A stretch of DNA of 64,000 nt from Marsupella aquatica (GCA_973895155.1 OZ316894.1:12316828-12380827), one strand, 5' to 3'. Shown: positions 36,260 through 62,800, numbered from the stretch's first letter. The notes: generated by a model not told the origin, from the letters alone. Numbers and translations are program-made.

Positions 36260-39200
36260 TGATAGATATTGCTCTAGTCTTGTGACTCATGAGCTAACCA
36301 CAGTTAGTCTAACTTGGGTTAGGACTTAGCTAATGTTAGCGCTAGTGCTATTGTGCATATAGCTAGGGCTGATGCCAGACCCTGGTGGAACTTAGGCTCA
36401 TTGTTACGGAGCTAGTTGAGAGATAGGGAGAGCTTGTGCTGTGGATGCTTGGTATGGCCGGTCGGCCTAGAGTGCGGTAAAGCTCTTGTGTGTTCCCGTG
36501 GACGTAGCCTCATGTGGAGGTGAACCACGTATCTCTCTATGTCGACTATTGTGCATTATGGTTCATGGGCTTGCTGTTACGAATGTCGTCTATGCTCAAC
36601 AAGTGGTATCAGAGCATGCCTGGGAGGTGACGAGGTTTTTTCGTGACAGGTTTTTTCCAACGTTCATTGTCGGTGGCACATTCGGAGTTTCATCGCATGA
36701 AACTTGAATGTGTGTGGCTAAGCGGATAGGTTAGTGAGAAGGCTTTCTAACGGTGGTTAGAACTCGCTGATGGGTATCCGTGGTGCGGAGGAATTGAAGT
36801 TTGCGTCGTTCAAGGTTTATTCGTGTTCGACGGTATTTCGGGGGAGAGACCAGAGTTTGCGTTTTTCAATGGTGTGAGCTGTGCGGTGCGGGAGGTGTCG
36901 CACATTGTAGCTCAAGTTGAAGATTGGAGCGAGCTGGTCATTTCGGTAATTGGATTGCTGTCGAGTTGTGACCGAGTGCGTCGTGACGAGTGAAGGAGGC
37001 GTTCAGGTTTTTTCACAAGCTATGGAGCTTGTTCACATCTGAACCGGGTTTCTCCTCGTGACGTCCGACTCGGTGGAAGAAACGCAAAGTGCTACGGCTC
37101 AATGGTTTGATCGTGGCAAGGCGGTCATTTTGAGCCCGGGATTGGCACTTGACGCAGAGTGAAGGTGACGGGGCGGAAATTTTTCTATTCTGCTGGAGCT
37201 GCAGACTGTGCCGGTGAAATTTGGCCACATTTACCGTCGGTGACGTTCATTTTTCTTGTTGGAAACGGTGGCGGCAAAGGTGAGTTATTGCCTTTCTTCT
37301 TTGGGGGGTCAATTTTTGCTTTTGGGGGGGTTTAGAGGGTTTTTTCTCGTGAGTATACACACGAGGTGTATACACACCTCGGCCCCACACTCCCTCATAC
37401 GCCATTTTTCCCTCCCCGCGTACCTCTTCGTATCGGGCCCCGCCGGCCGTTCCCCCCCCCCCGCACTCCCGTTAAACGTGGCGCAGCGCCGGTCGGCGCT
37501 TGGTGCGCGCTCGCTCACGCCTTGTGCCTCCCTCGCCCCCTTTAGTCCCCGCCCCTTTGGCTGCCGCCTGCAGCCCGTGGGCTGCAACCCCGGTGCCTCC
37601 CTTCTCACCCCCGTGCCCGGCCAGACGACTCGCCACTCGCCCTCGCCCCTCATCCTCCTGCCGCCTGCTCCTGCCGGCCGCCTGCCCTCGCGCCCTGCAT
37701 TATCACCCCGGCCCGGCCCGGCCATACGGCTTGTAAACGCCCGGCCCAATGCGCGTATTCTCCCTGGCCGCCCTTTGTTTTAACCGCTCCGACAGGGGGA
37801 ACGGCCCCCTGTGAGACCTGTCGGACTGTGTGAGAATATTCCCAAAAAACAGAGAGCTGTTTTTCGGCCGTCCGATAAAGATTTTGTCCGCCGAACGATA
37901 ACTTTTTTGGTTCTTTTTCGGTGAGGACGTTGCCATTGGAGTTAGCAACGCGGCGCACCAATCACATCGCAATTCCGACGACGGGTTGTACTAGGTATTT
38001 TGGTTATTCTCCAAGGTGGTCAAAACGGGGGAGTTTCCCAAGGTTTTACCCACCCTGACCAAAATTTGAATAACTTTTCCGTCAAATTTTGATTTTGATT
38101 TCGGCTTTCAGTATGGGACTCCTAGCTTCGTGGGCTACGCGGTGGTGTTGAGTTTTGAGTTTTATGAGAAGTTTCAAAAAAAGACATTTTTTTGTGATTG
38201 TTTCATATGAGTGACTCGGAGGATACTGGAAGAATTGGCGTCGGTGGAGCTTTAGGATTGCAACGGTCAGACGGTAAGTCTGAGGAGGAGCTGCTACCAT
38301 TTGAGGAAGAACTAGTGATACCGGTACGATCACCGGTGCGGCGTGCAGTGGAAGAAGCTGTACTACTACCAGAGCTATCGGTAGTAGGGAAGAGGAGGGA
38401 GATGGCTAGATTTGGAGGAGTAAAATTTGAGGTGAAGAAGTATGATGGTCGTACTGACTACTTGCTGTGGGAGAAGCAAGTGAAGGGTATCCTTCGGGCC
38501 ATGGGCTTAGCTCATCTACTCTCTTCGCGAGAGCAGTATGATGGAAAGGAGGAATTTCTGTGAGATAGTGGAGACAGGAGCAGGTGATTGCTGTCAATGC
38601 AGTGATGCTATATCTCAAGCCGCACATCATCAAGCAGCTGGATGATTATGTGGATTGCGCGTCACTGTTCAAGGCTCTAAGAGAGAAGTACTATCGGGAA
38701 GATGCATCAGACCGGCTGTACAAGAAGTCACTCTTGATGAGCCTTAGGCTCAAGGAAGGGAGCAAGATGCAGGATCACCTTGATGAGTTTGACAGTCTAG
38801 CGGTGGATCTATCAAACCTGGGAAAAGAAGTTGAAGATGAGGATAAGGCCTTGCTTCTGCTAAGTTCCTTACCGCCGTCATATCAGGGCTTTGAACAGGT
38901 GCTCTTGTACAAAGATTTGAAGTCCATTTCGTATAATGAGGTGGTGAGCTCCTTGCTGTATGATGATGCTCAGAAGAAGTTGGATCAATCACAGACAGCA
39001 TCTTCTTCTGGCACTGCGTTGAACGTGAACCATGGAAGAGCAGCGCAGTGCACGAATGGGCAGAACAGGTTTAGATCTACATCACGGGGGAGATCTAAAT
39101 CCAGAGGGAAATCGCAAGAGAGGAAGCCTCTTGCATGTTGGAATTGTAGAAGCCTGGCCATATGAAAAGGGATTGTCGAGTAAAGGTCCCTACTGCCTCT

Positions 39201-42200
39201 GCTAACGCGACATCGAGCTCGCATGAGGTAGGTTTACTCGATAATGATGACATATTGTGATGTCAAGGTTATGCTCTCAACATAGTGTCAAATCTAGATA
39301 GTGATGACTGGATTCTAGATAGTGCATGTACTTTTCACATTTGCTCTAGGAGAGATTGTTTCAGTTCTTACACAGTTTCCAACGGGTCAGTGTTGATGGG
39401 AAATGGAATCCCATGTCAAGTTGTTGGACTTGGATCTGTAAGATTTCAGATGTTTGATGGTGCTGTGAGAACATTGAGGAATGTAAGACATATTCCCAGC
39501 ATGATGAAAAATCTCATTTCACTTGGAGTTTTAGAAGCAAATGGCCATCAATGGAGTTTTGCTAATGATGTTCTTCAGGTTTCAACTGGTACTAAAGTTG
39601 TATTGAAGAGAAAGAGACATTGCAATCTATACATTTTGGAGGGCAGTGTAGTCTGTGATGAAGCCAATGTAACCTTATCTCATGAGGAGACGGCCTAGCT
39701 GTGGCACTTTTGTTTGGGCCACATGAGTGAAAAAGGTTTGGTTATTCTTCAGAAGAAAGGATTACTTTCTAATTTGCAATCTTGTAAGTTGGAATTTTGT
39801 GAGCACTGTGTGCTAGGGAAGCAGCACAGGAAACCCTTTGGAGTTGGAACTCACACCAGCAAGGAGGTACTTGAGTATGTACATAGTGATGTGTGGGGTC
39901 CAGCCCCTACTCCCTCACATTCTGGACGGTTATACTATGTCACGTTCATTGACGATTACTCAAGGTATGTGTGGATATACTTTCTACACAATAAGTCTGA
40001 TGTTTTTGCCATTTTTAAGGAGTAGAAAGCCCAAGTTGAGAATCAGACTGATAATAAGGTGAGATATCTTCGATCGGATAACGGCGGTGAATACAGTTCC
40101 GGGGAATTTGGAACGTATTGTAAGGAGCAGGGGATTACCCGTCATCTCAGAACAAGTTATACTCCTCAACAGAATGGTGTTTCTGAGAGACTCAACCGAA
40201 CACTATTGGACCGCTCGAGGAGTATGTTGAGTCAGTCATGCTTACCACATGAGTTTTGGGCTGAAGCTGTCAACACTGCAACTTATTTGGTAAAATTTTC
40301 TCCATCCAGTTCTATTGGATTCAAGACGCCATTTGAAATGAGGTACGGGCGTCCAACAGATTACTCACATCTGAGGATTTTTGGATGTGATGCTTATGTG
40401 CTTACACCTTCCCAGCTTCGATCCAAGCTGGAGTCCAAGTCAAAGAAGTGCATTTTCCTTGGCTATCAGAAAGGTGTGAAGGGTTATAGGTTATGGGATC
40501 CAATAACCTGTAAGCTAATTGTCAGTAGAGATGTGTCATTTAATGAATCCAGATCATCAAAGGAGGAGGAGAGTTCTCAGGACTCCCATACTGACAAGGG
40601 GAAATCTCCCATCCCGGACCGGGTTGAGGGAGAGATTAGTCATGATGTTGTTCATGACAGGAGAGATGGAGAAGCTCCGGGCTTGGAGCTAGTTCCTGTG
40701 ATGGAACAAGAGGAGCAAATTGTTGCTGGGGTACCTCAAATTCAACCAGAAGCAGCAGCAGATCAGCCTGAGTCAACTACTAGAAGAACTTTCAGTCGTT
40801 CTACTAGAGCTCCTACTAGGTATGGTCAATGGGCAGACTCATCTAAGCTAGATGATATTGACATTACACCTGATGATGATGACATGGCTTTGATCTTGGA
40901 AGAAGGAGAGTCTTCTTCGTACAGTGAGGCTTGTGCTTCAGAGCAGAAGCATGAGTGGAATGCAGCAATGCAGAGAGAATTGCAATCTTTGAGTGACAAC
41001 AAGACATGGGAGCTGGTGGAGCTTCCAAAAGGTCAACAAGTGGTGGACAGCAAGTGGATTTACAAGTTGAAGGACAGTCCTTCAGAGGGTGGAGATAAGA
41101 TCTACAAGGCAAGGCTTGTTGCCAAGGGGTTCACTCAGGAGAAAGGAGTGTACTACAATGAGGTCTTTTCACCGGTGACTAAGTATTCCACAATTCGGAT
41201 CTTGTGTCAGCTTGTTGTGTTTTTTGGTCTGGTGATGGATTAGATGGATGTTGTTACTGCTTTTCTCTATGGCAACTTGGAAGAGTTGATCTTCATGAGA
41301 CAGCCACTAGGCTTTATGAAGAAGGGCCAAGAGAACTTAGTTTGCAGATTGCTCAAGTCCTTGTATGGATTGAAGCAGTCTCCCAGATAGTGGAACAATC
41401 GGTTTGATGATTTCATGCTTGCTCAAGGTTTTACAATGATGGTGTATGATCCTTGTGTGTATACGAAATCAGTCAAGAATGATGTATTTGGTTTCATCAT
41501 TCTGGTTATTTATGTGGATGACATGCTGATTGTGGCTAAAGATCAATCTGAGGTTGACAGTCTCAAGGCAAAATTGAGTGTTGAATTCAGGATGAAGTAT
41601 CTTGGTAAGGCCAAGAGGATCTTAGGGATGGAGATTTTTAGGAACTCTGAGACTGGACAGTTGTGCTTGAGTCAAGGCCAGTATGCGAGGACAGTACTTG
41701 CACGATTCAACATGGAGAACTATAAGCCAGTGAGTATTTCTTTAGTGAAAGGTACATTGGGAAGCTGTGAAATGGATTCTCAGGTATCTCAAGGGTACAC
41801 AGCACTATGGATTACTATTTGATAACAGATCAGATAGAATGTTAGTTGGCTATGTAGATTCTGACTATGGAGGTTGTCTGGACACAAGGAGGTCTACAAC
41901 TGGGTTAGTATACACTCTTGGAGGAGGATGTATTAGTTGGAAATCTACCTTGCAGAAGTGCATTTCTCAGTCTACTATAGAAGTAGAGTATGTTGCAGCA
42001 GCAAAAGCAGCAAAGGAAGCAATTTGGTTGGATAAGTTAATCGCGGAGATGGGTTTAGAGCATGGCAAAATGACTATAAACTGTGATAGTCAGAGTGCTC
42101 TTCACTTGGCTGCTAACCAGGTGATGGATAGCAGGGTGAAGCACATTGATATCAGGTACCATTTTATCAGGCAAGCAGTGTCTGATAAAACTTTTGAGCT

Positions 42201-42855
42201 AGTCAAGATTGATGGAAAACTCAATCCTGCTGATGCCTTTACCAAAGTGATTCCTTTGGAGAGTTTCTCAAGACACCGTGCTACTTTGCAGGTTTTGCAA
42301 TTGTAGTGCAAGTAGAGTTATTTAGCAATGTGTGACTATTTGTATATGGATTACTCATTCCTGTTAGGCTACGGCTTAGTTCTAGTTAACCCTTAGTTAA
42401 CCCTTGTGGTTTTTAGGGGGAGACCTAGTTTGGTGATTGTCTAGAACTTCCCGCTGAGGATTCCATATGGTAGCATTTAGTCCAGTCCCCAAGACAAGAG
42501 TCAAGGGGGAGTTTGTTAGATATTGCTCTAGTCTTGTGACTCATGAGCTAACCACAGTTAGTCTAACTTGGGTTAGGACCTAGCTAATGTTAGCGCTAGT
42601 GCTATTGTGCATATAGCCAGGGCTGATGCCAGACCCTGGTGGAACTTAAGCTCATTGTTACGGAGCTAGTTGAGAGATAGGGAGAGCTTGTGCTGTGGAT
42701 GCTTGGTATGGCCGGTCGGCCTAGAGTACAGTAAAGCTCTTGTGTGTTCCCGTGGACGTAGCCTCATGTGTAGGTGAACCACGTATCTCTCTGTGTCGAC
42801 TATTGTGCGTTAAGGTTCATGGGCTTGCCGTTACGAATGTCGTCTATGCTCAACA
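36260..42855 (+). mobile_element. Full-length Ty1/Copia LTR retrotransposon (Tork/Tnt1-like), sister family of 20326-26985, decayed
   Basis: 342-bp LTRs at 36260-36601 and 42514-42855 (about 11 mismatches by eye). TSD ATTAT on both sides, PBS TGGTATCAGAGC at 36604 and PPT AAGGGGGAGTT. Confidence 0.97.
38402..42306 (+). pseudogene. Copia gag-pol polyprotein with stops, frameshifts and a deletion in late RT
   Basis: MARFGGVKFEVKKYDG gag, WILDSACTFH protease, CEHC..GKQ and HSDVWGP integrase, YVDDML RT, CDSQSA RNase H. Confidence 0.93.
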
Positions 42856-43502
42856 ATTATTTGAGCAAAGGTTTCCGCGGCTCGAGTCAACTTTAAAAAA
42901 AAAATCATACCCACATGCCTCACCAAGTCTGAGAAGGAGCATGTCCCAAATAGGTAATACAACTACAAATACTCTAGATAAGTCCAACTGGTTTGCAGGT
43001 TCTTGTGTGCCCTTGTTGTGTACCGCATCCTTAGGTAAAGTAGGCTTGAGGGGCACCAAAAGGATATAACTTGATACTATGTCACTTTCTATGTTAAATT
43101 TTGGTTGGGTTGTTGGTGTTGCCAAAATTAATGTTATCATTTTGGTCATTGTTGTTGTTGCCCCGAGGTACTCACTTATTTCTTTCGACCCATAATGAAC
43201 ATAGAAGTATAGGGTTTGTTAATTGGGTTTAGTGAAGAGTTATAAATTATTGTGAAAGAACATTTGGGGTGTTTCAATCAAGTTTCGAAAATGATAAGAA
43301 TTAAATGGTTCTTAAAACCAAATTGGGAACGTTCTAAGAATATTCAAAAAAGTCAGGGTTGAGAAAAACATGAAAATTTTATAAACTTATATTTTAGGGT
43401 GCTATTCCTCCAAACATTTGTACATGATATGAAACCTACCTTGGGATGAGGCCCCAGGTTGTTGTTGTGAAAGTGTTGTTGTTGGGGAGAGCAAAAGTTA
43501 TT

Positions 43503-45372: not shown

Positions 45373-45749
45373 CAGTTCCTTCCAATTTTGCGGTGTTCAA
45401 TATTGGTGCACTTAATTCTTTTTCTTTCAAGTTCCCATTACAAGATATTTTCAAATCAAGCCATCCATCATATATAGTTCATCTCAAGGAATGACTTTCT
45501 GTAATCATGAGCAATGTCATTCATTCTATTTTGATCAACTAGCTCTTTCAAGGTGGTCTCAACGCATGCCTTAATTGCAGGCTCACTGAATTTGTTTTAA
45601 GCACTCCACATTGTGAACATTGTGCTCGATGTATTCAGCTGATTCACTATACCTTGAATTCATTTTCCGGTTAGCAATGTGCTTGAAAGGCCTAGTTAAT
45701 TTTATTGCCCACATTCATGGCTCTAGTCTTCTCATGTAGTATGCATTGA

Positions 45750-46345
45750 GTAGCTCAATACCCGTGCGTTGCACAAAAGATGTTGTGATGGCCAAGATGT
45801 CATTGAGAACAAAGAGGTCGTGTCAGCCAAGAGGTTGTTGAGAAGAAAGATGTTGTGTTGGCCAAGAGGTCGTTGAGAAGAAAGATGTCATGTTGCCCAA
45901 GATGTTGTTGAGAACAAAAGATGTCATGTCGGCCAAGATGCCGGTGATAACAAAAGATGTCATGCCGGTCAAGAGGTCATTGAGCAAGAAGATGTCGTGT
46001 CGGGCAAGAGGTCATTGAGAAGGAAGATGTTGTGTCGGCCAAGGTGCCGGTGATAACAAAAGATGTCGTGTCGGCTAAGTCGTTGAGATCAAAAGATGTG
46101 GTGAAGACAATACCCGTGCGTTGCACAAAAGATGTCGTGAAGAAAAAGATGTCGTGTCCCCCAAGATGTTGTTAAGAACAAAAGATGTCATGTCGCCCAA
46201 GATGTTATTAAGAAAAAAGATGTCGTGTCATCTAAGATGTCCTTAAGGAAGATGTTGTGTCACCCAAGATGCAGTTAAGAAAAAAAAGATATGGTGTTGC
46301 CCAAGATGTTCTTAAGAAAAAAACTGTTGCACAAAAAGGGCGCAA
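45750..46345 (-). mobile_element. Helitron-like 3' terminus plus tandem array of about 35-40 bp (aaagatgtcgtgtcggccaagatg...) units
   Basis: On the - strand, tgtgcaacgcacgggtattgagctac resembles the plant Helitron 3' hairpin (GTGCAACGCAC) followed by a CTAG-like end. The motif recurs near 46110 and 53990. Confidence 0.6.
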
Positions 46346-46966
46346 AAAATGAGTACATAATGTCAACAACCACAAACTATCATTAAGAATGATTTTTGTC
46401 TTTGTCTTTGTATTTTTCATTTTGTAATCCCTTGTAAACCTTTTACTACCCCCCCCCCCCCCCCTTTAGGCCTTTTGTACTATTTTTTGGTTTGAATTAA
46501 ACTCCTCGTATGACATAGATTATCATGGGGTACTTGATATGGATGTCTAGGCATGGAGAGTGGAGTACTATTTCTATGCATGTATAGTACTATACCTAGA
46601 TGGTCCATAAATACTTGATTATTGTGCATTGCCATTCTGTGGCATTCCCCTTTATTTCTTGCTTGGAAGACTTGTCACTCCTTACTTCACACTAAATATA
46701 ATTCAATTTTGGTTTATTCTATAATTCCTTCTCTTGGTCATATTTTTTAATTTTTCTGCCATGCAAATTTGAATGACGACCATGTGAGTTAATGTGTATT
46801 ATAGGAGTTAATAGCTCTGAATGACGTGGTGAAATTTGATGTCATGGCGCCAAAGATGTTGTTAAATGAAAGATGTTGTCAAGTAAAAAGATGTTGTAAC
46901 TTACGGAAATCCACTGTGATACCACTAGTAACAACAACGCCATGATGGCTCAGGGATACTGGCTGT

Positions 46967-48574
46967 GTGATCAGTGGTAGGGGGGAACTCCAGAAATACC
47001 TCAGAGCTCCACTAGGGGTAGACCTGAAAATGGAGCAGCTGCACAACTATGTATTGGATAAGATTGGACAAAGGCTTTTATCTTGGGCCAACAAGATGTT
47101 GACATTCACAGGCAGAACTTTGCTTATAAGGCAAATTTTACAGGCAATACCAGTATACCACTCGATGTTCCTAAAGGCTTCTAATGCGCTGGCAAGAAAA
47201 ATGACTGCACTTTGTAGAGGCTTTCTGTGGGGGTATAATAAGGAGGGAGGTAGGCGGGTACCACTGGTCTCCTGGGCTCGCATCTCTCGCCCTAAGATGG
47301 AGGGGGGACTTGGAATCAAGGATTTCAGAAGCCATTCGGATGCATTACTCGCCAAATGGTTTACTGGGGCGCTGGATTCCCCCAGATTGGAATGGGCCTG
47401 CTTGTTTGCTGCGAATTTGAAACTGATTGGATGGGCCAACTATAAGGTAGTAAGGAGAAACAACTACACATTTAGGCACAAGATGCTGCTCTGCTGTCCA
47501 CGAGCACTTCATGGACTGGCATATACAGGTGGGCTTTGGAAGGCATGGGAACAGCTACGGGTGAATTTGATATTCTGCTCCACGGATCGAGTACCAGGAA
47601 GATGGGCAGTAGGGGACACAATCAGGTGCTTGAAAGGCTTCCAAGCATGGAGCAATGAGGACATGGCTGCTGTCACGAGGCTCTGTGGGCGACTGGGCAT
47701 TCGGTGTATACAAGATCTGTGGGCAGAGGAGAGACAGGGATGGAGAATGGTGAATGAGAGACGGGAGAACCTGAGGGGATTTTCACTCGAACACCATAAT
47801 CTGGGAAGGAAATTCATGGATGCACTAGTGAGCATCAAACAGTGTGTTTGGGGCTATGAGCCTGGTCCTCGATGTTGGTGTTGGGCAGACTGTCCGGATC
47901 CACTGAAGAGCTTTGGAATCCAGAATAGGAGAGCTTATAGGATGATCAGGATTGAGTGCAGCGATACCCCCAGTCTGAACAGAACGTGGGGGATATCCAG
48001 GACAGCGGGGGAGTGGAATGTAGAATGGACTGGTATATGGAGATCTGGGTTGACTATGAGGGCTAAGACTTTTCTGTGGAGGATAATTGCATCTGGTCTG
48101 TTTACTGGAGCGAGGGCGATAAAGATAGGTAAAGGAACTGGTGAGTGCAAGCTGTGTCCTGGGATTCTAGAATCCATTCCCCACCTCTTCATTGACTGTG
48201 CACATGCACAGCAATGCTGGGCTTTATGTGCGGGATGTTTTGATGGTGCATTTGCGGATCGCTCTGGAGGCCTGATTGGGATGCTTGACTCTGCTATCGG
48301 AAGGAACCCATGTAAAGTAGTGAAATTGTTTATGCTATACCAGATCCTCTGGACGCTGTGGAATGGCAGGAATGAACACATGTTCAAGACAGAGGGAACC
48401 AGAAAGCTAGACCTGCGCTTTATGCTCTCTGAAGTGGCGGACCATGTCTCTGCGGTGATACTCACCTTACCGGCTTGTAATAGAAGAACAAGGCTACTTA
48501 GGTCCAAGGAGATGGTAAATAGGGAAAGGGTGCTATGGATTAACCGGAGGGATATCTGGATCACTTCAGGTTAG
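46967..48574 (+). CDS. L1 ORF2 C-terminal part (end of RT plus zf-RVT zinc finger), truncated
   Basis: QKYL.APLG, GRTLLI..ILQAIPVY, LVSW.RI..PKMEGGLG, CKLC...LESIPHLFIDC, LWTLWNGRN. Confidence 0.9.
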   Translation: MISGRGELQKYLRAPLGVDLKMEQLHNYVLDKIGQRLLSWANKMLTFTGRTLLIRQILQAIPVYHSMFLKASNALARKMTALCRGFLWGYNKEGGRRVPLVSWARISRPKMEGGLGIKDFRSHSDALLAKWFTGALDSPRLEWACLFAANLKLIGWANYKVVRRNNYTFRHKMLLCCPRALHGLAYTGGLWKAWEQLRVNLIFCSTDRVPGRWAVGDTIRCLKGFQAWSNEDMAAVTRLCGRLGIRCIQDLWAEERQGWRMVNERRENLRGFSLEHHNLGRKFMDALVSIKQCVWGYEPGPRCWCWADCPDPLKSFGIQNRRAYRMIRIECSDTPSLNRTWGISRTAGEWNVEWTGIWRSGLTMRAKTFLWRIIASGLFTGARAIKIGKGTGECKLCPGILESIPHLFIDCAHAQQCWALCAGCFDGAFADRSGGLIGMLDSAIGRNPCKVVKLFMLYQILWTLWNGRNEHMFKTEGTRKLDLRFMLSEVADHVSAVILTLPACNRRTRLLRSKEMVNRERVLWINRRDIWITSG

Positions 48575-49056
48575 AAGTAGAGTTTGTTTGAGGATGATGG
48601 TTTGTAGATGATGAGGGTTCTGTCTATCAAGGGTACTGTGATAGGTTGTTGGGCTGCCTGTTAAACGCCAACTTCGACCTTGCGATTAATGGCCGTTTAA
48701 CTACCTTCTCCTCAGTAATCTCGTTTAAACGATTAACCGACCTTCGAGAGGCGGCACTCCTTCTATCTCGACACAGTCCCCGTAAGTGAATCCGACCAAG
48801 TGCTCTTGAATGTCGAGTTCCGTCTTCCACTTCTTAGGTACTTCAGCCTCGGCCAACACTAACCCCTCTCTATACACAATCTCAATGAACCCACACCACT
48901 CGTGGTAAGTGATCAAGCAAATCGGAATATTCTCGTATAGTGACTGACGGGAAATAAGATGGGTGCCGATAGAACAGATCCACAGTTCCAGTGATCTTAC
49001 TTAAGGTAATCAAGGAGCAAGACTTGTCGTCACTACTGTCTGCGTTCATGGTTTTT

Positions 49057-52000
49057 CCTTGGAATGGTTTTTTTTATAAATTTTAATACCGTGAAAGACC
49101 CCACGGATAGGGGGAACAACAGCCCTTAATACAGGGACAGCAACAGCACACTAGCGAGCCACAAAGAGAGCCCAAAAGCACAAAAGAGAGCATCAAAGCC
49201 CCAGGGAGAGCCCCCCCTCAAAGAAGGGAAATAACACCGATCAAGAGAGCACCCATGCCCTTCCCACAGCAGCCCCCCAAAAAGCAGACCCCTCAATCAG
49301 CAACGCCGCCGCTAGAGGGCACCAAGAGAATCCCTGTCCCCACCCCGTCTCAGCCAGATTTGCCTCGTTCCCCGCAACCATTCCTGAGCCCGGTTCAACC
49401 GAGAGCGACGCCGCCCAAAGCGTAAACCAGCCCCAACCGCATGGATGTGATTGGCAGTCTCAGCAAGCATCAGGCCCAAGTCAAATGAACGTCCCACCTT
49501 GTCAGAGAACATATGTTCATTTCTTCCCAGCCAAATCATCCAGAGAGTCTGATATACACAAAAGATCCTAGCAGTGTGAATAGGCTCCGGTCCTGTCGAT
49601 GCATCAAGAATAGCCAGCAGACCACCTCCAATGGGTAAGCGAAGCTCCGTCAAAATCCTGTCACACATCCTCCAGCAACATGAGGCATGGGAACATTCAA
49701 TGAACAAATGTTGCATCGTCTCCAAGACCCCACAGCAAAGCTTGCAATTCCCAGTACCAGCCTGGATACGGAGGGCCCGTTGACCAGTAAACAATCCACC
49801 AACCAGGATCCGCCAGATAAAGGTTTTTGCCCTGCAGGAGAGGTCAAAAATCCACAGCTTCTTCCATCCAATGCACCATTCAATTTCCGACCGGTGTGAG
49901 GACCAGCACCTATTAAGCAGCACATGAAGGCTCATCTTGGGTCTCAAGAACTGGTAGACCCTGCAGTTGGTGATCTGAAAGTCCTTGAGAGGTTCTGCCC
50001 TGTCAGACCAGCGCCACTGTCTGGCCGGAGGATCCCTGTCCCACCTGCAGGCAGTTGACTCCCAAATTCTCCCTAGGAACGCTCTAGCCAGCCCTCTGTG
50101 CTCCCCCGTGAATCCTCGCAGCACCTGCCCCCTAAGCGGAAGGTCTTTCCAGCCCCCTGTCTCCACCGACCATCCGTCCTGAATTGATCTCATTCCCAAG
50201 CGTCCACAAATAGCAGTGACTCCTACAATGTCCACATTTGGCAATGAATTGAAATCTACCATACATCTAATTGCATCGTTAATGCTCCAGCGTCCAGGGG
50301 CACCATATCTCCCAGGACAAAAAGCCAGATGGGCACGTAGCTCCTCCCAAGCCTTCCATAGACCACTTGTATACCTGAGACCACCGCCTGCCCTAGGAGT
50401 ACAGAGCAGAAGCCTATCCTTGAACGTGTAATTGTTTCTTCTGATCACCTTGTAATTCAACCATCCCATTAAAGATAAGTTGGCTGCCAGCATCTTCGAC
50501 CATTCCCTGTCTGGATACTCTAGGGCCTTAGTGAACCATTGTGATAATAATGCATTGGAGTGGCTTCTGAAGTCCTTGAATCCCAGGCCGCCCTCTATTT
50601 TTGGAAGTGTCATCTTGTCCCATGCCACCAGCGGAATTTTCTTCCCACCTGCAGGATTATATCCCCACAGAAAATCTCTACTGAGGGCAATGAGTTTCTT
50701 GGCCAGACCCGCTGAAGCCTTGAGGTGCATCACATGGTAGATTGGGATGGCCTGGAGCACGTGTTTGACCAATAAGGTTCGACCTGTGAAAGAGAGGAGC
50801 TTATTTGTCCAAGATGACAGTCGTGAGCTGATTTTATCTAGGCAGAATCTGTGCAGTTGCTCAGTCTTCAGCCCGGCCCCCAAGGGAGCGCCCAGATATT
50901 TCTGAACCTCCCCCATTGCACTCACTTGACAGCCAGAGTACAGCAGCCAATCCGGGATGACCTCAATTGCCAAGGGAATCACCACAGATTTTCGTAGGTT
51001 CAGCTTTGCTCCAGAACCCATTTCATAACATGCAAGTGCAGTTTGTGCCTGGGTGAAAGCTTCCTCCGTGGCAGGAATGAACATTCCAACATCATCTGCG
51101 AATAATCTGTAGCATATTGTGAGTGTGTCCGTGATTGACAGTCCACTAAGTCTCCCAGCCTCCATCTCTGCAGCTAAGAAGTCCATCAGCGGTTGTGTCG
51201 AGATGACAAAAAGTAGGGGCGACAAGGGGCAGCCCTGTCTCACCCCCCTCTTAAGCTCAATCATACCCGTCGCAAAACCATTGACCATTGCCTTCGAGAA
51301 AGATCCAGCCAACAGAGCCCGTACCAGTGTGATAAAGTGGCCACTTATTCCCAGTAAGTGCATTGTGTCCCATATGTATTCGTGATTCACCCTGTCAAAG
51401 GCCTTTTCGAAATCCAACTTCAAGAAAAGTGCCTCCATCTTCTTGTGCTGTATCCAGTCACATGCGAGCCAGGCCAGTGAGATGTTTTCCAGAATGTGGC
51501 GCCCCTGTATAAATCCGGTCTGTTGGGGGCTGATTATCTTGTTCATGATTTCTTGTAACCGCAATGCCAGGATCTTAGCAATGACTTTGTACGTTGTGTT
51601 CAACATTGTAAGGGGACGCCAGTCCTTCAGTGATCTCTTATCAGGCTTCTTCGGAATGAGCTTTATTATCCCTTCTTTTAATGCACTATCAATCTCTCCT
51701 GTCATCCAGAATTCTTGTATCATTTCTACCAAGTCCTGTCCCAGAAACTCCCAGCATGCGCGCAGTACTTCTGCCGTTAAGCCGTCTGGGCCAGGCGATT
51801 TGTCTCCTGGTAGCATCCAAAGCACTTCCTTCACCTCTTTAGTTGTCGGGAGAGCTTCCAATTTCATTCTCTCTGCCGCTGTAAGCGCAAATTTTGTGTG
51901 TTGCAGTAGACGTCTCCTCTCTTGCCGTCGTTCTTGTGTCTCCCTTTGTGAGGGTTCCTGCGGTGCATAAAGTGCTTGACACATTTTCTCCACTTCAAGC

Positions 52001-52128
52001 ACAATGCTTGCCGCCTCTGTTATCTCCGTCCCATCCTCTTTGAGAATCAGGTTCATGGTTTCTCGGGCGCGTTTAGCCTTTACTATCGCATAGAAGAACT
52101 TTGTTGATTCGTCTCCTTCTCCCAGCCA
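49057..52128 (-). mobile_element. 5'-truncated L1-clade LINE nested in the 3' region of the + strand LINE
   Basis: Perfect 16-bp TSD tgcgttcatggttttt at 49041-49056 and 52129-52144, with an A-rich tail near 49068-49084. Confidence 0.92.
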
Positions 52129-52137
52129 TGCGTTCAT
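49312..52137 (-). CDS. L1 ORF2 reverse transcriptase plus zf-RVT, 941 aa, lacking the AP endonuclease domain
   Basis: W.GEGD.STKFF, KSPGPDG, WRPLTMLN..YK, KLDFEKAFDRV, GVRQGCPLSPLLF, LFADD, CKLC...ETMQHLFIEC, in one uninterrupted frame. Confidence 0.95.
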   Translation of the reverse strand: MNAWLGEGDESTKFFYAIVKAKRARETMNLILKEDGTEITEAASIVLEVEKMCQALYAPQEPSQRETQERRQERRRLLQHTKFALTAAERMKLEALPTTKEVKEVLWMLPGDKSPGPDGLTAEVLRACWEFLGQDLVEMIQEFWMTGEIDSALKEGIIKLIPKKPDKRSLKDWRPLTMLNTTYKVIAKILALRLQEIMNKIISPQQTGFIQGRHILENISLAWLACDWIQHKKMEALFLKLDFEKAFDRVNHEYIWDTMHLLGISGHFITLVRALLAGSFSKAMVNGFATGMIELKRGVRQGCPLSPLLFVISTQPLMDFLAAEMEAGRLSGLSITDTLTICYRLFADDVGMFIPATEEAFTQAQTALACYEMGSGAKLNLRKSVVIPLAIEVIPDWLLYSGCQVSAMGEVQKYLGAPLGAGLKTEQLHRFCLDKISSRLSSWTNKLLSFTGRTLLVKHVLQAIPIYHVMHLKASAGLAKKLIALSRDFLWGYNPAGGKKIPLVAWDKMTLPKIEGGLGFKDFRSHSNALLSQWFTKALEYPDREWSKMLAANLSLMGWLNYKVIRRNNYTFKDRLLLCTPRAGGGLRYTSGLWKAWEELRAHLAFCPGRYGAPGRWSINDAIRCMVDFNSLPNVDIVGVTAICGRLGMRSIQDGWSVETGGWKDLPLRGQVLRGFTGEHRGLARAFLGRIWESTACRWDRDPPARQWRWSDRAEPLKDFQITNCRVYQFLRPKMSLHVLLNRCWSSHRSEIEWCIGWKKLWIFDLSCRAKTFIWRILVGGLFTGQRALRIQAGTGNCKLCCGVLETMQHLFIECSHASCCWRMCDRILTELRLPIGGGLLAILDASTGPEPIHTARIFCVYQTLWMIWLGRNEHMFSDKVGRSFDLGLMLAETANHIHAVGAGLRFGRRRSRLNRAQEWLRGTRQIWLRRGGDRDSLGAL

Positions 52138-52856
52138 GGTTTTTAGTAGCCGTGACCTGATTAAGTCCGACTGTCCTTTGAATCAGCCTGCCTGGCAATT
52201 GATTTCCGGATTGTGTGGGTGACTATGACAGGGTTTACCCTTGTATGATGGAGGTGTATGACGACCAGTGTATCGCCTTCAAAACACACTATCTCCAACC
52301 AGACACCGCTTCTCACTAGCTGTCTGTTCAACCTATACCTTGAGGTGCTGGCCCGTAAGGTTCTGGTTCGCAATGAGACGATATTCATTCATCGTTGCGA
52401 TTAACGAGTAACGACTTGCTGCATAAGGCAAATTCCTTCTCTCTCTCTCTCTCTCTCTGATTTGACGGTCTCATTCACTGCTCAAGTGCATACTTCACTC
52501 TGTTGCATTCATTCCAAACTCTCTCTTTATACTCAAAGACTACTCAACTGAGTAGGGACACTATTACAAAATTGCTGGCATTCCTAAGGTGAGCGGAGCT
52601 CTACCTTGCCCCAAACTTCTAGCAAAAAGTGACAGAGCGCCTATCGCTCCATAGCCTCTAAATACCTATTCCTCGTGTCCGTCTCTGCCCGAGGCCTCTA
52701 CTACTTCTTGGGGTGCGCTGATTACAGTTGGATGACTCGCGCCTCCTCTTTGATCTCCTTCGCTCGTTCATCAAGAACGCTAACTAATGCCTACCAGAAC
52801 GATGAGTGGAAGCCAAGAACTGCTGATTACTATGTCAAGAAGTTCTGTCTTCCTGG

Positions 52857-53462
52857 TTACTGAACTGTGCAACGGCCTCCTCGATTCCCTTCGGTTGCGC
52901 CTGATCCGGAAGCTTCCGGACTCCCGATTGTTAATCTTGCCATATGTGCCTCGACCTCCTGACTTCTGTCATCTTCCTTGGGGTTGCTCGGTTTGTCGGC
53001 CATGATTACTTGTTCGGCAGTGATTAATCGCCACGTAATCCGCTGATCATGGCTGTTATCCTGTCTTAGCAGCAGATTCCATTTCTTCCGCATGACCTTT
53101 CTACAGAGTTCTTCGATGGCCTCGCCGGTGGTGAATCGTTGGCGGAACTCTTCGCCCTTCATTCCGAACAATTGTTGCCCCGCCGCATCCCACACACGAT
53201 AGCTTCCTTCTTTGATCCGAATAGTGAACATGAACATAGGCACTCCTTCTCCTAGCGACTTACACTCATGAGCTAACCGATTCCTGCTAATGGGGGTTCC
53301 TATATTCGCCCCCCCTTGCCTTCTCTGTCGAGCTCTTGTGCCTAAGGCACATACTCTACCATCTGCTAGTAGGCCATCACAGCCTTCATAGCAGAACTCG
53401 ACTCCTACACGACCGTTAATCGAGATGATCGTCGCCTCCCCTACTTCCAGCCTTTCTGTCAT
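52857..53462 (-). CDS. RPA70 C-terminal (Rep_fac-A_C)-like zinc-finger OB-fold protein, about 201 aa
   Basis: ATIISI...FCYEGCDGLLADGRVC...HEC...PMFMFTIRIKE...VWDAAGQQLFGMKGEEF...ELCRKVMRKKWNLLL parallels the plant RPA70 DBD-C pattern (AT..I..FCY.ACP...C...C..C...Y.L...I.D....AF..AG..I.G....L). Assigned by eye. Confidence 0.65.
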   Translation of the reverse strand: MTERLEVGEATIISINGRVGVEFCYEGCDGLLADGRVCALGTRARQRRQGGANIGTPISRNRLAHECKSLGEGVPMFMFTIRIKEGSYRVWDAAGQQLFGMKGEEFRQRFTTGEAIEELCRKVMRKKWNLLLRQDNSHDQRITWRLITAEQVIMADKPSNPKEDDRSQEVEAHMARLTIGSPEASGSGATEGNRGGRCTVQ

Positions 53463-53742
53463 CTCCACAAAATGAATAACCGCTAGTCCTTGCTTACTAC
53501 TTCCTAAATACTCTTGGTTGACCTCTAGTTGACACTTCTAAACCTAAAGAAAAACTATAATATCGCCGGTGTAATTTTTATCGTTTACACTACCCCTGGA
53601 TCCACTCTGGGACTTGAGACACTTGCACTGTTGGCTGTTTGGAATACTGGTGTCCCCTTTGCTGATGCTTCTAAATTCTGATTGTTCCCCTTGCTGCGGG
53701 GCTTTCGTGGCTCAAATTTATAAAATTAAAATGGATTTAAGG

Positions 53743-54100
53743 AAGTAAAAAGATGTTGTTTTGTCAAAGATGTTGTCATAAAAAGGTGTGATTTATATAA
53801 AAAGATGACATTTTGCAAACAATGTCGATGCGTGAAGGATGACATTCCGCAAAAGATGTTGTGTAAAGGATGTCATTATGTAAACAATATCATAAATTTC
53901 TCATTGCACAAATATAAGATCACTCTTAACAACCTTAGTCTACAAAAATTGCAGAAGCATTCTATTATAGGTTTTGATAGTTCAATATGCGTGCGTTGCA
54001 CAAAAGATATCATTGCGCAAAAAACATTGTTTGCAAATTCAAAAAGTGTTGCGCAAAATATGTGGTTCTATGAAAGATGTCATATGCGGTAAAGATGTTA
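53743..54100. repeat. Continuation of the AAAGATG Helitron-like array, with a third gtgcgttgcac hairpin motif near 53990
   Basis: Same motif family as 45770-46340 and 46850-46897. Confidence 0.65.
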
Positions 54101-54354
54101 TTGTGTAAATAATAAATAAATGAAAAAGAGGTTACAATGTACAAAGTGAAAGAAAACATAGTCAACATTAAAATGTGAATAAATTGCACACTATGAAGCT
54201 TTAGTTATTGCCCTCAATGTGTTGCCATTTCATTCAAAAACATATCCAATGTTTTTTAGTGTCTTTGTTTTCTTGGAGCAAGTACCAAGTGGAGGGGCGA
54301 GTCTAGATTGAGTGAACTCATTGTATGTTCATTGTATGGCACATGCAAATATAG

Positions 54355-54812: not shown

Positions 54813-56233
54813 TGTAAGAAACCGTCAGTTCTGGATTAGACAACAATGCGAAAACATGAGAGAGATACTCAATCAGACGCTACACCGACGAGACACCCCA
54901 AGTGAAGAAACTCCTGAAGGCTCCATAGCAAATGAGAGTACATGTGAAGAATGAGGGAGAGAATGCTCTCACTCCAACCTATATCCCCCAAGGGGACTAA
55001 GATGTGTGAGCTTAAACTAAACGGATCTTATTCCAATGTAATCTAGGGTTAACTAACCCTGGTAAGGCCAAACTAACTAAACCGGTAACTCGAGTCAATT
55101 CCTAACAATCTCCACCTTGACTTCAGTGCACACAATGAGTCAGGTGAAACACAATATGTAACTAAGTAACATATCTACATAGTCTCCGGTTTGGCCCTAA
55201 CATTAATAATATCCACACAATGACTAAAGCTATTGGTAGGTAAAACTTTGGTAAACATGTCTGTCACGTTCTCCTCTGAAGCCACCTTCTCCATAAACAT
55301 CTACTTTGTCTCAATCACCACACGGATGAAGTGATAACGAATATCAATTTTCCTTGTCCTGGCATGGAACACAAGGTTCTTAGCCAGATGCAAAGCACTT
55401 TGACTGTCACACAGCAGCACCAGTCTTTCAAGATAAAGACCCAGATCACTCACCAATCTCCATAGCCAGATCAACTCCTTGGTTGCCTCACAGGCATCCA
55501 TGTACTCAGCCTCAGTAGTAGACAACGCAACATAGGATTGATGTGCCGACTTTCTGCTGATACAACCTCCACCCAACAGAAACACATAGCTTGTAGTAGA
55601 CTTCCTTTTATCCAAGTTACTAGCATAACTGAATCTACAAAATCTTCCAACTCTAATGTAGAGTTTGCTTTACCGTCAAATAGAATCCCACAATCTAAGG
55701 TACCTTTGAGATACCGCAAAACAACACAAGTAATCATTGGATTGTCCTCTTAAAAGTACTTCAAAAAACATAGACACATTCGACACTCCAAGATGAAGCT
55801 TCAATTGGGAAACCGTCACCGCTTTCAAACACGAAACCTTCAACGCAAAACAACTAGTGAAACTATCACACAATTGTCGGTGATGATTCAATCTTTCATC
55901 CCAATCCAACACACAAACGCTCTCACCACTGTCCAGGCCACCAAACCTCAAACACGAAGCTCTGATACCACTTGTAAGAAACTGTCAACTTTGGACTAGA
56001 CAGCAATGCGAAAACATGAGAGAGACACTCAATCAGACGCTACACCGACGAGACACCCCGAGTGGAGAAACTCTTGAAGGCTCCATTGCAAATGAGAGTA
56101 CATGTGAAGAATCCTATACCCTCCAAGGGGGACTAAGATGTGTGAGCCTAAACTAAACGGATCTTATCCTAATGTAATCCAGGTGTAAGGCCAAACTAAC
56201 TAAGCTGGGAACTCTTAAAGTCAATTCCTAACA
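54813..56233 (-). mobile_element. Internally deleted (TRIM-like) Copia element, 1.42 kb
   Basis: LTRs at 54813-55107 and 55973-56233, TSD CAAGG on both sides, PBS TGGTATCAGAGC and PPT AAGGTGGAGAT. Only a decayed RNase H region (LRYLKGT...CDSQSA...IDIRYHF) remains. Confidence 0.93.
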
Positions 56234-59860: not shown

Positions 59861-62800
59861 TGTCGTGAGGTAATGAGTCTCCAACAGATCTTCTAGTCCG
59901 GGAGGTTTTATATATAGGTGTATGTATCATGTACACCCCTGGTTAGGGTGACTTAACCAGGGTAAACGGTGACTAGACGTGGGGATTATAACACTCCCCC
60001 TTGGCTAAATAGTGGTAGCTATGTAGACAACTAATCCTATGAGTCTAGTCTTTGTTGATTATGTTTATGGAGTGTATATGATAGGTGTACAAGCGAGGAG
60101 GACTGCCTCGTTAAAAAACCTTTATCAACTCTAGCTTAGTAAAAACTCTACCAGTGTAGTAGAGAAAAATGAGTGCTAAAGGAAAAAGAGTGCAGTCTAA
60201 CAATCCTCGTCGTAATAAATATCAATGTTAAGTAAAGTTAGATGCTATAGTAAATCTAGCTTTTAACATTTGTCTCATCAGTAGGTCGTCAGCAGCATAT
60301 CATCAGCATCATGTTGTCAACATCATCAAGTATCATGTGGAGCAGCAGCCTCCACGGTCATCATACGTCGCACGCTCTGTAGTCCAATCGCCTGGCAGTG
60401 TCGGTGATGGACTGATGGTGATAATGATTTGGTGAAGAGATCCGCACAGTTGTCTGCACTTGATATCTGCAAAATGTTGATCTCTTTTCCATGTAACTCG
60501 TGAGTGTAGAAAAATTTCGGAGCTATGTGCTTCACGCGATCGCCTTTGATGAATCCTTTCGTGATCTGCTGTATACATGCTGCGTTATCCTCAAAAATGT
60601 TAGTAGGCTTCGTTAGTGGTGGTAGGTCGCATTTGGTGTTGATGTGGTTTATAAAGGATCGTAACCAAACGGCTTCACGACTAGCCTCATGTAGAGCTAA
60701 GATTTCTGAGTGATTCGATGAGGTTGCTATTAGGGTTTGTTTCACGCTTTTCCAAGAGAAAGCGGTACCCCCTATGGTAAAAACATATCCGGTTTGGGAT
60801 TTTGCGGTATCAATGTCGGAGAGGTATCCGGCATCCGTGTATCCTATTAGCTCGTGGTTTGCACCGAATGAGTAAAATAACCCGGTATCGGTGGTTCCAC
60901 GTAGATATCTAAATATGTGCTTAACTCCATTCCAGTGTCTGGCTGTGGGAGTTGCACTATGTCTGGCTAGTAAGTTAACTGCAAATGCAATGTCTGGTCG
61001 TGTCTGATTTGCTAGATACATTAATGCTCCTATTGCGGAAAGGTATGGTGTTTCTGGTCCTAATAGTGGTTCATGTTCTTCGCGCTTGCGAAAAACATCA
61101 GTATTATTTTCTAATGAACGTACAACCATTGGTGACATCAATGGGTGTGCTAGGTTCATATTGAACTGTTTTAGGATCTTTTCGGTTTGTGTGGTCTAAT
61201 GGAGCATCATGCCAGTGGGTAGGATCTCTAGTTGTAAGCCTAAGCAAAAGTTTGTATGTCCAAGGTCTTTCATCTCAAATGTGGATTTAAGACTGGTAAT
61301 AGTATCTTCTGTAAGTTGGGGTGTCCCAAATATATTTAAGTCATCAACATAAATAGAAACGATGACATATTCATCATCCACATGTTTAATAAATAAACAT
61401 GGTGTAATGGCATCATGGGAAAAACCCATGGCAATCATTTCATCAGTAAATCTTTGATACCATACTCTGCCACTTTGTTTCAGGCCATATAATGCCTTCA
61501 ACACGCGGATATCTAGTCCACGGCGAGTATTCCGTATGGTTGACACAGCGGTGTCATTATTATGAGTTACATGTGTAGATGACACATGAGGTGTAACTTG
61601 AGATAATTGTGTGATAATCTTATGTAAATATAGGATATGTGATTTAGCGCCTTGAGCTAAGGCTCGGCGTCGTTGCTCCAACTCGGGAGGTGATTGCATG
61701 TATAGACAAGTGTCTAAAGTTCCATATAGATATGCGGTTGCAACATCCAGTTGTCGCATTTGTAGTTTATGGAAAATGGCAAATCCGATAAGGTATCGGA
61801 ATGTTGTGCTATCCATAACCGGTGAGTAAGTTTCATCGTAATGAATTCCCGGTTGTTGGGTAAATCCTTTCCCTACCAGACGTGCTTTGTAGCGTATAAC
61901 TTGGCCTTTATCATTTCTTTTGCGGACGAATGTCCACTTGTAGCCAATGAGGTGTACGTCTTGCGGTGTTGGCTCGACTGGGCCAAAAGTGTGTCTGCTT
62001 AGTAGGGAATCTAATTCTCCGTTTATAGCTTTTTGCCATTCAGGCCAATCTGGTCTGTTTTGGCATTCTAAGATGGATATTGGTTCTGGTGTTTCGTCTG
62101 TGATATGTGTTGCCACCATTAATGCAAAAGCATCATCTATTGAAGTAGTATTTCTATCCCACATCGCACCTGTGTCTGCGTAGTGGATAGAGATCTCTTC
62201 ATGGGATGTAGATTCGGTATGATTGACATCAGGTGAAGGTGGTATAGATGAACCACGCCTTCGTGGTTGTTTATCTTTTGATCCCAAGGGTCTACCTCGT
62301 TTTGCACGAGGTTGGGATGTACTTGCTAGCTCACTTGATAATTCGATGCGAGCAGATGCTCTCGCAGCTGGAATATGTGAGCGGGTAATTTGTGATGTGT
62401 CAATGAAAGCGTCAGGAAGTTCTTCCACAATCTTGTGGAGTTGCAGAATTCTTTGAACTTCTTTCTCCCCTTGATTTGTTCTAAGGTCTTGCCAAAATGG
62501 CGAGTGTCTTTCCCACTCCAAAGGTGGTTGTGGGTGTTCGGGGGTTATTAATGATGGGTAAATATGCTCATCAAAATGGCAATCTAGGAATCTGGCTTTA
62601 AAAACATCGCCAGTTGTAGGCTCTATATATCGGATTATGGACGGTGAGTCAAATCTGATGTATATCCCCGACTGTCGTTGGGGTCCCATCTTGGTTCGTT
62701 TGGGTGGAGTAATGGGGACCATTACTTAACATCCAAATGAACGAAGATGTGATAGGTCAGGTTTAATACCATTAGCAATTTGGTATGGGCTATAGGTATT

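Follow-up and report, generated by a model that had tools for sequence, protein, structure and literature searches.

An RPA70-C-type gene in a likely solo LTR nested within an older LINE of Marsupella aquatica

Introduction

Does a gene that lies antisense within the 3' region of a LINE belong to that LINE, or to another mobile element that inserted there? (LINE is short for long interspersed nuclear element.) The question is raised by a stretch of 64,000 nucleotides from Marsupella aquatica (GCA_973895155.1 OZ316894.1:12316828-12380827), hereafter the window, in which an L1-type LINE at 46898-53742 encloses an open reading frame (ORF), ORF A, that resembles part of RPA70. (RPA is short for replication protein A.) A preliminary description, made from the sequence alone, took the gene to be a stable accessory module of a LINE subfamily. 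We lean towards another answer: ORF A appears to be an RPA70-C-type gene within a 1.84-kb element, likely a solo long terminal repeat (LTR), in the 3' untranslated region (UTR) of an older, truncated LINE. It seems probable to us that the gene's carrier, which we call the cargo, is an independent nested element, and somewhat likely that it is a solo LTR specifically. The features are collected in Table 1.

Results

The host LINE ends beyond the gene

We studied other copies by aligning Logan contigs of public sequencing runs to the region (five runs, X1-X5, from three studies). Contig depth was compared only within one run and is not a copy number. The window's own alleles, such as a 4-nt duplication at 48996, are absent or rare in these runs, so the contig cover derives from other copies.

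The host LINE is flanked by an exact 17-bp repeat, AAGTAAAAAGATGTTGT, which the preliminary description had read as a target-site duplication (TSD), while allowing that it might be a chance match within an AAAGATG array. Suffixes of this repeat of at least 13 letters occur in just two places in the window, at 46881-46897 and 53743-53759; the 11-mer AAAGATGTTGT occurs 8 times. Furthermore, a deep, multi-copy contig from X3 extends 5' of 46897 with different letters, which supports the left boundary, and multi-copy contigs in X1, X2 and X4 end at 53744, which supports the right one. Because contigs support both boundaries independently, a chance match within the array is ruled out, and the TSD stands.

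What remains of the host's ORF2 is 542 amino acids (aa) with a zf-RVT domain (3.9e-12), the reverse transcriptase (RT) core having been lost by truncation. It is 51% identical to ORF2 of a sister LINE that is nested on the minus strand within the cargo, flanked by a 16-bp TSD at 49041-49056 and 52129-52144, and that carries RVT_1 (1.5e-31) as well as zf-RVT. Both resemble plant L1-type LINEs in their ORF2 with zf-RVT (and, in the sister, RT), their long TSDs and their 5' truncation. As already described, 2080 bp follow the ORF2 stop of the host, compared with 255 bp in the sister, and the two LINEs have a terminus in common: the last ~125 bp of the host align with the sister's end with a score of 67, which was reached in none of 2000 crude shuffles. 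ORF A lies upstream of this true terminus, and the earlier view that it is not an ordinary 3' transduction therefore holds.

Each LINE has a short A-rich stretch followed by AAGG before a TSD that starts with A. At 53736-53745 and at 49052-49064 the AAGG ends right before the duplication, and family contigs keep the end as far as 53744. A defined terminus other than poly(A) may be a trait of this LINE family.

The cargo has ends and a duplication of its own

What the preliminary description overlooked is that 1843 bp, the greater part of the 2080 bp, are bounded by LTR-type ends and flanked by a separate 5-bp duplication. The cargo begins with TG at 48659 and ends with CA at 53589, and is 1843 bp long without the nested LINE. 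Its junctions read CTGCC/TGTTAAACG ... CGTTTACA/CTACC, with an 8/9 terminal inverted repeat (TIR) and a flanking 5-bp duplication that matches at 4/5 positions. Between the region of the ORF2 stop and the end of the LINE, this is the sole TG/CA pair with a TSD of at least 4/5 and a TIR of at least 8/9. Such a pair was found in 57 of 2000 shuffles when the search was broad, and in 3 of 5000 near the boundaries that the contigs define.

TG...CA ends with a 5-bp duplication are the signature of an LTR, and 93.4% of plant LTR elements have 5-bp TSDs, according to the accessible part of PMC6317226. The window also contains a Copia element that bears this signature, TG...CA with a CAGAG duplication. 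The cargo resembles a solo LTR in its TG...CA ends with a short inverted repeat, in a TSD within the 4-6-bp range (4/5 matching) and in having copies with other flanks. Removing it leaves a LINE UTR of 232 bp that is G/T-rich like the sister's 255 bp. As to orientation, the sole TATAAA of the cargo is on the minus strand (52531), in a block shared with a second element family, and the flank of one other copy is purine-rich (AGGGGATAC before TGT on the minus strand), with no primer-binding site (PBS) seen. Because of the single minus-strand TATAAA and this flank, which resembles a polypurine tract, the cargo is presumably oriented on the minus strand.

Hairpins and a palindrome (CGTTTAAACG) lie at both ends of the cargo (48659-48732 and 53569-53590). 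A 12/13 direct repeat near the ends is at chance level (92 of 1000 shuffles). No 13-bp pair of subterminal inverted repeats was found in the cargo, the best inverted match being reached by 117 of 1000 shuffles.

Could the cargo instead be a non-autonomous DNA element, such as a Mothra/HINE-like rolling-circle derivative with an RPA gene and without RepHel, or an unclassified TG...CA transposon? We consider this improbable. Rolling-circle elements insert at AT/TT without a TSD, as described in the accessible parts of PMC4344730 and PMC4067079, whereas the cargo ends CC/TG and CA/CT and has a 5-bp duplication. Furthermore, the Helentron RPA as described in PMC4067079 has DBD-A and DBD-B (DBD is short for DNA-binding domain), and ORF A has just a DBD-C-like domain. 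What speaks for a DNA element is that RPA-like genes are known as cargo of plant Helitrons and Helentrons (PMC4683698 and PMC4067079, as far as accessible), together with the hairpins at both ends and the microsatellite inside.

Other copies of the cargo do not follow the LINE

The joint 49040>52129, which represents the form without the inner LINE and at which 16 letters fit both sides, is present in three of four runs, which means that many copies of the cargo lack the nested LINE. Breaks in the contigs fall at the ends of the cargo: a match starts at 48657 in X5, and loose ends begin at 53589 in X2 and X3. Two related LINE-tail contigs in X4 start matching at 53593 and have other letters upstream, and so are tails without cargo. 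In X1 the depth rises from 230-330 where ORF2 ends to 640-730 within the cargo and is down to 123 for contigs identical to the terminus, a drop that X2 and X4 show as well; across the contigs, the cargo has 2-5 times the depth of its LINE flanks. The depth is not at its maximum at the 3' end of the LINE, contrary to what 5' truncation predicts.

Divergence from the family contigs falls from the host LINE (18/682, 2.6%) to the cargo (16/1374, 1.2%) to the nested LINE (6/2706, 0.2%), and the two steps have p values of 0.017 and 0.0003. This order fits that expected for sequential nesting. The LINE would have inserted into the array repeat; an LTR retrotransposon would then have entered the LINE's UTR and been reduced to a solo LTR, and the young sister LINE would have inserted into the LTR last.

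These observations bear on the reading of the preliminary description, in which the region is an accessory module of a LINE subfamily whose protein might protect complementary DNA (cDNA) during target-primed reverse transcription. In the full model that we weighed, the module is integral to the LINE, is kept because of this protection, and is swapped among subfamilies with different tails. LTR-type ends and a TSD that coincide exactly with the contig breaks, changes of depth at either junction, and the lack of cargo in related tails and in the sister LINE all argue against it, as do the order of ages and the homologues from Riccia that sit behind another gene (see below). That description had named copies of the ORF outside LINEs as something that would count against its reading, and the excess depth of the cargo over its LINE flanks and the tails without cargo come near to this. 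Its proponents could point to the unbroken cover from ORF2 through the cargo as far as the terminus in runs without the alleles of the window copy, to the letters after 53589 in other copies, which start like the window's (GTATCCCCT versus CTACCCCT), and to the absence of an empty-site joint among the 15 of 71 joints listed. We think that a stable LINE module is probably wrong, and rate the full model as very unlikely.

Alternatively, a solo LTR might have entered an active LINE master and the composite been copied a few times, so that the gene was a passenger moved by the LINE machinery. Contigs identical to the terminus have ~4-5 times a single-copy-like depth in X1, X2 and X4, and ~4-5 near-identical LINE tails may also carry the cargo. 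The element's TSD (4/5) is more decayed than that of the LINE (17/17), and the depth in X2 allows bridging. Yet the cargo is less diverged from its own family than the LINE is from its own, no contig among those listed bridges either junction, and nested insertion is the rule in this window. We therefore regard a passenger as an outside chance and prefer a separate insertion of the cargo into the LINE.

Within the nested LINE, the depth steps up about twofold at 49780-49900 (from 282 to 550 in X1 and from 196 to 345 in X2), which might reflect a short derivative of its 3' end.

ORF A is a gene with homologues in liverworts

The preliminary description reported an open antisense ORF of ~201 aa. 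Indeed, ORF A (53462-52857) is 201 aa long from its ATG, and none of 1000 dinucleotide shuffles gave one as long. Between 52988 and 53456, the second element family aligns without a gap and differs at 79 positions. Past 53456 it has a loose end in which an ATG falls at the same place as that of ORF A; on the other side its match runs to 52854, immediately beyond the stop codon. The start and stop codons thus lie just inside the limits of this homology, and ORF A is a real, conserved gene.

The second family, which covers 52520-53456 and shares ~83% identity with the main one over ORF A, reaches about the main family's depth in X1 and X4, but in X2 just a quarter to a third of it. This unevenness suggests a recent, uneven spread.

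A phmmer search with ORF A against 1.84 billion representative proteins gave 71 hits (best 4.5e-32), 66 of them genuine; the other five (P0026, P0043, P0051, P0056 and P0069) are repeat-protein artefacts and were dropped. Names are available for 12 of the 30 representatives that we looked up, and all are from liverworts (5 from Calypogeia fissa and 7 from Riccia sorocarpa). These names point to a liverwort as the likely source of the window too. In a tree that included 56 of 85 proteins, the Calypogeia paralogues fall into four lineages; they are divergent and lie on different scaffolds, as would be expected for a mobile gene. Six long gene models (P0027, P0028, P0038, P0048, P0053 and P0054; all but P0053 are named as R. 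sorocarpa) place the OB domain (OB is short for oligonucleotide/oligosaccharide-binding) behind upstream coiled-coil/RING sequence on the same strand. This upstream sequence is conserved and is absent from the window; therefore the ORF A family also occurs in another setting. The coiled-coil/RING sequence is probably a neighbouring gene of the parent element. The dispersed Calypogeia paralogues and the Riccia gene models point to mobile elements other than the host LINE.

Conserved residues of ORF A include Y25-E-G-C28, L32-x-D-G, C38-x-L-G, R45, R60, R62 and H65-x-C67, and, further on, V90-W91, G95, L98, G100, G103, F106 and W128. The aromatic residue W91 presumably corresponds to F532 of RPA70.

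Other searches gave little. ORF A alone had no useful match in NCBIfam, PHROGs (E 0.19), PDB sequences or plasmids, and a PDB sequence search with its alignment returned unrelated hits only (E of at least 0.07). A word-index search was blank for ORF A, and its blanks mean little because it missed a 50%-identical homologue that phmmer later found. Scans of collections found no relative of ORF A or of ORF2, two loci from one scan being 20-residue chance matches to the tail of ORF A; an Atlas search with the homologue P0005 gave no usable match. For ORF2, a search among longer proteins found none. A profile search found 4 proteins only. A profile of the ORF A core has no second copy in the window.

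The predicted fold resembles RPA70 DBD-C

The preliminary description likened ORF A to the C-terminal zinc-containing OB fold of RPA70 and proposed a check against PF08646. ORF A has no Pfam hit and does not reach the 28.5-bit cut-off of PF08646; two of the 66 homologues touch that family at 13.5-14.9 bits, below the cut-off. The likeness is borne out instead by predicted structure. We modelled ORF A with AlphaFold2 and an alignment of 62 sequences (ORF A and 61 homologues, namely 60 of the 71 phmmer hits plus P0072), in which no RPA protein was included. The model has a predicted local distance difference test (pLDDT) score of 84.1 and a predicted template modelling (pTM) score of 0.70; residues 1-152 are ordered and the tail is not. 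All six Foldseek hits at E of 0.001 or below are to five RPA-containing chains and one Tetrahymena telomerase chain. In a wide structure search (VIA), RPA70 DBD-C came first and Teb1 OB-C next, with Cdc13, CTC1 and POT1 at Z scores of 8-9 and single-stranded DNA-binding proteins of the SSB type near 7. The model aligns with human RPA70 (8rk2_A) at Z 12.9 over 137 residues (root-mean-square deviation, rmsd, 6.8), with Ustilago maydis RPA70 (4gnx_C) at Z 12.6 over 130 (rmsd 3.3) and with Teb1 OB-C at Z 11.5 over 121 (rmsd 2.8). A library of viral structures gave no match to ORF A at E of 0.001 or below. An earlier model from the single sequence (pLDDT 39.6) was set aside, as its fold hits are meaningless.

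The predicted structure of ORF A is thus DBD-C-like, an OB fold with an inserted zinc ribbon. The protein is not an RPA70, because its zinc ligands are C-C-H-C instead of four cysteines and because DBD-A and DBD-B are absent. The ligand positions C28, C38, H65 and C67 are conserved at 88, 95, 98 and 88%, respectively; those of human RPA70 DBD-C are C481, C486, C500 and C503 (bioRxiv 2020.09.04.283879, accessible part). No DBD-A or DBD-B Pfam domain was found in the 66 homologues, and the ORF starts at the domain.

The tail suggests a candidate function

The disordered tail contains a motif that resembles a class-1a nuclear export signal, and the pattern is found in 16 of 23 tails, compared with 2.6 expected; these tails are related to one another. 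The pLDDT there is 51-68, and the distance of the motif from the OB domain varies widely. R45, R48, R60 and R62 are conserved at 64-86%, and 23% of the zinc-ribbon insert is arginine or lysine. An AG lies directly before the ATG in the window copy and 2 letters before it in the loose end of the paralogue, and there is a pyrimidine-rich, acceptor-like site at ~53545. With the cargo taken in minus orientation, ORF A starts 127 nt from the end of the LTR.

Given the element, we tentatively propose the following mechanism. ORF A would be a sense gene in the U3 region of the element and would be made from a spliced RNA whose acceptor lies next to the ATG. The OB cleft and the arginine-rich insert would bind single-stranded RNA or cDNA of the element, and the leucine-rich tail would recruit exportin-1, so that the protein would act as a Rev-like export adaptor for full-length element RNA.

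The same element might put the protein to another use: it could chaperone cDNA in the cytoplasm, inside the retrotransposon particle, or act as a decoy for host RPA, with a tail helix that serves oligomerisation or binding of RPA32/RPA14 and not RNA export. The best structural matches bind single-stranded DNA and form the trimerisation core of RPA, which speaks for such a role. In contrast, the motif of the tail falls in a linker modelled with low confidence, and its distance from the domain varies, which is not what a packed C-terminal helix would show; its spacing is that of class 1a, with L-x-L/I at the end. Taken jointly, and again given the element, we put these two roles a little short of an even chance, about level with export. 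On our preferred reading, the product of ORF A would likely act for the LTR element and not for the LINE, probably as a shuttle for the element's single-stranded nucleic acid.

Evidence that weighs against a nested LTR

Several points weigh against a solo LTR nested in the LINE and against an export role for its gene. First, neither a gag-pol parent nor a PBS nor a second LTR of the cargo was seen in the window or the contigs, and so the label "LTR" rests on ends, TSD and length. The cargo's TSD has one mismatch (G>A) and both LINE TSDs are perfect. The 37-mer at the empty-site junction matches the sister no better than shuffles do (971 of 3000 reach its score), and joining the UTR raises the alignment score with the sister from 67 to just 72. 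The 15 of 71 joints listed do not include an empty-site joint 48658>53595. By the arithmetic of depth, not all tails in X1 can be bridged to the cargo, although some could be, and X2 allows bridging; where depth steps serve as support, depth is no copy number. The test of divergence used the longest listed pieces only, and the window copy's own subfamily may be unsampled. In the main family, 6 of 10 listed differences in ORF A are synonymous, an excess that is not significant (P 0.08). The thresholds for TSD and TIR and the export-signal pattern were set after the sequence had been seen, and class-1a patterns give many false positives (PMC6488578, accessible part).

Features and surroundings

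Table 1. Features of the host LINE, the cargo and the nested LINE (window coordinates).
Feature	Position	Strand	Evidence
Left 17-bp TSD copy of host LINE	46881..46897	.	Exact repeat; X3 family contig continues 5' with other letters
5'-truncated host LINE ORF2, C-terminal part with zf-RVT	46898..48574	+	Open frame 46946-48574, 542 aa, no RT core
Host LINE 3' UTR, first part, G/T-rich	48575..48653	+	Composition; empty-site alignment
Left copy of 5-bp duplication flanking cargo, CTGCC	48654..48658	.	X5 contig match starts at 48657
TG...CA element, likely solo LTR, 1843 bp without nested LINE	48659..53589	- (presumed)	Termini, TIR 8/9, TSD 4/5, contig breaks, depth
Possible second small ORF (ORF B), ~106 aa, unconfirmed	48725..49049	-	Nested LINE hit the start codon; 4-nt duplication breaks the frame
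Left 16-bp TSD copy of nested LINE	49041..49056	.	Exact repeat; joint 49040>52129
Nested, young, 5'-truncated sister LINE, RVT_1 and zf-RVT, 255-bp 3' UTR	49057..52128	-	6 differences in 2706 bp
Right 16-bp TSD copy of nested LINE	52129..52144	.	Exact repeat
(CT)n/(GA)n microsatellite inside cargo	52436..52458	.	Sequence
Only TATAAA of cargo, candidate LTR promoter box	52526..52531	-	Block shared with paralogous family; loose end before 52550, indels 52573-52610
ORF A, 201 aa; residues 1-152 predicted as an OB fold with C-C-H-C zinc ribbon, then a disordered tail	52857..53462	-	ORF, homologues, predicted structure
Class-1a nuclear-export-signal-like motif, residues 170-179, VEAHMARLTI	52926..52955	-	16/23 tails, 2.6 expected
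Right copy of 5-bp duplication, CTACC, one G>A difference	53590..53594	.	Two related LINE-tail contigs begin matching at 53593 (X4)
Host LINE 3' terminal module in common with sister, ends AAGG without long poly(A)	53595..53742	+	Family contig 53628-53744, 0 differences
Right 17-bp TSD copy of host LINE	53743..53759	.	Inside high-copy AAAGATG-array repeat

ORF B has no support as a gene: its ~106 aa are within chance (the mean longest ATG ORF in shuffles is 83 aa), and it had no family or homologue match in Pfam, NCBIfam, PHROGs or the homologue set. Reading the frames gave no continuous ORF across 52233.

On either side of the host LINE (45740-46897 and 53743-54110) there is a high-copy repeat with a 35-36-bp AAAGATG array, whose two sides are joined by contigs in several ways. 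The window also contains several decayed Copia-type elements (20326-26985, 36259-42856, 54813-56233 and 60326-63970). The one at 20326-26985 has 332-bp LTRs and the CAGAG duplication, and the unit at 54813-56233 is a short form with an internal deletion. Host genes are a PAM68-like gene (PF11947, 9.4e-42) and an exon of a major facilitator superfamily (MFS) transporter, at 7985-8719 and 29038-29823. No tRNA was found in the window.

Discussion

How does ORF A compare with what is known? RPA70 DBD-C and Teb1 OB-C are likewise OB folds with an inserted zinc ribbon. Compared with them, ORF A is 10-15% identical, has C-C-H-C ligands, an arginine-rich insert and a tail that resembles an export signal, stands alone without DBD-A and DBD-B, and scores below the PF08646 cut-off.

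Among mobile elements, plant Helitrons and Helentrons carry RPA-like genes, according to the accessible parts of PMC4683698, PMC4067079 and PMC6431247. The RPA of plant Helitrons (PHRPA, including Mothra) and the RPA ORFs of Helentrons are, like ORF A, RPA70-like genes borne by transposable elements with many divergent paralogues (PMC4683698, PMC4067079). In contrast, the carrier of ORF A has TG...CA ends and a 5-bp TSD, and ORF A has a single C-type domain. Furthermore, PHRPA is reported in those accessible parts only from monocots and dicots, whereas the named homologues of ORF A are only in liverworts.

Plant LTR elements often carry extra ORFs, whose origin and function are described as unknown and for which Rev- or Tat-like roles have been proposed (PMC7264820 and PMC11963269, as far as accessible). 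Grande gene23, Retand TRP28 and the extra ORFs of Ogre and Athila are, like ORF A, conserved accessory ORFs of retroelements, and their function too is given as unknown (PMC7264820, PMC11963269 and PMC6317226, accessible parts). These ORFs are found after pol and ahead of the 3' LTR, or else 5' of gag, whereas ORF A would lie inside the LTR, and the accessible descriptions name no OB fold for them. The role of Rev in export is covered in the accessible part of PMC7264820.

Small accessory proteins with basic residues and a leucine-rich export motif, encoded at a 3' or LTR position and likely from spliced RNA, are a point of likeness between ORF A and the retroviral systems. Rev, Rem and Rec are retroviral export adaptors, and sag of mouse mammary tumour virus (MMTV) and nef of human immunodeficiency virus (HIV) are genes that overlap an LTR. 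Compared with Rev, Rem and Rec, ORF A has a different fold and origin, and its likeness to an export signal is one of sequence pattern.

Antisense ORFs are also found in L1-type elements, as primate ORF0 and as reverse ORFs over ORF1 in mammals. Those lie at the 5' end or over ORF1 and have no known domain, whereas ORF A most likely belongs to a nested element. A survey of L1 across eukaryotes found antisense ORFs over ORF1 in mammals only and none of that kind in plants, according to the accessible part of PMC5203782. Our searches of the openly accessible literature, most of them at the level of paper listings, showed no RPA-like gene in a LINE or an LTR element: the accessible parts of PMC3627910 and PMC6338049 have nothing on RPA, and the searchable part of the supplement of PMC6317226 (17,418 characters) gave no match.

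As a finding about LINEs, this locus offers less than the preliminary description had hoped, because it is most likely a nested insertion. If the gene's carrier is indeed a nested LTR, an RPA-like gene would be an accessory gene of LTR elements, likely in liverworts. A bolder idea, that liverwort LTR retrotransposons turned the C-terminal domain of RPA70 into an LTR-encoded, Rev-like export factor whose exportin-1 signal was kept from leafy to thalloid liverworts, strikes us as rather unlikely. If it is true, the gene would be portable with each solo LTR, and LINEs may carry some of these copies. With a clear ancestor for its fold (RPA70 DBD-C), at least 66 divergent homologues and a conserved tail that resembles an export signal, ORF A would make the proposal of Rev-like roles for accessory ORFs testable in a liverwort model.

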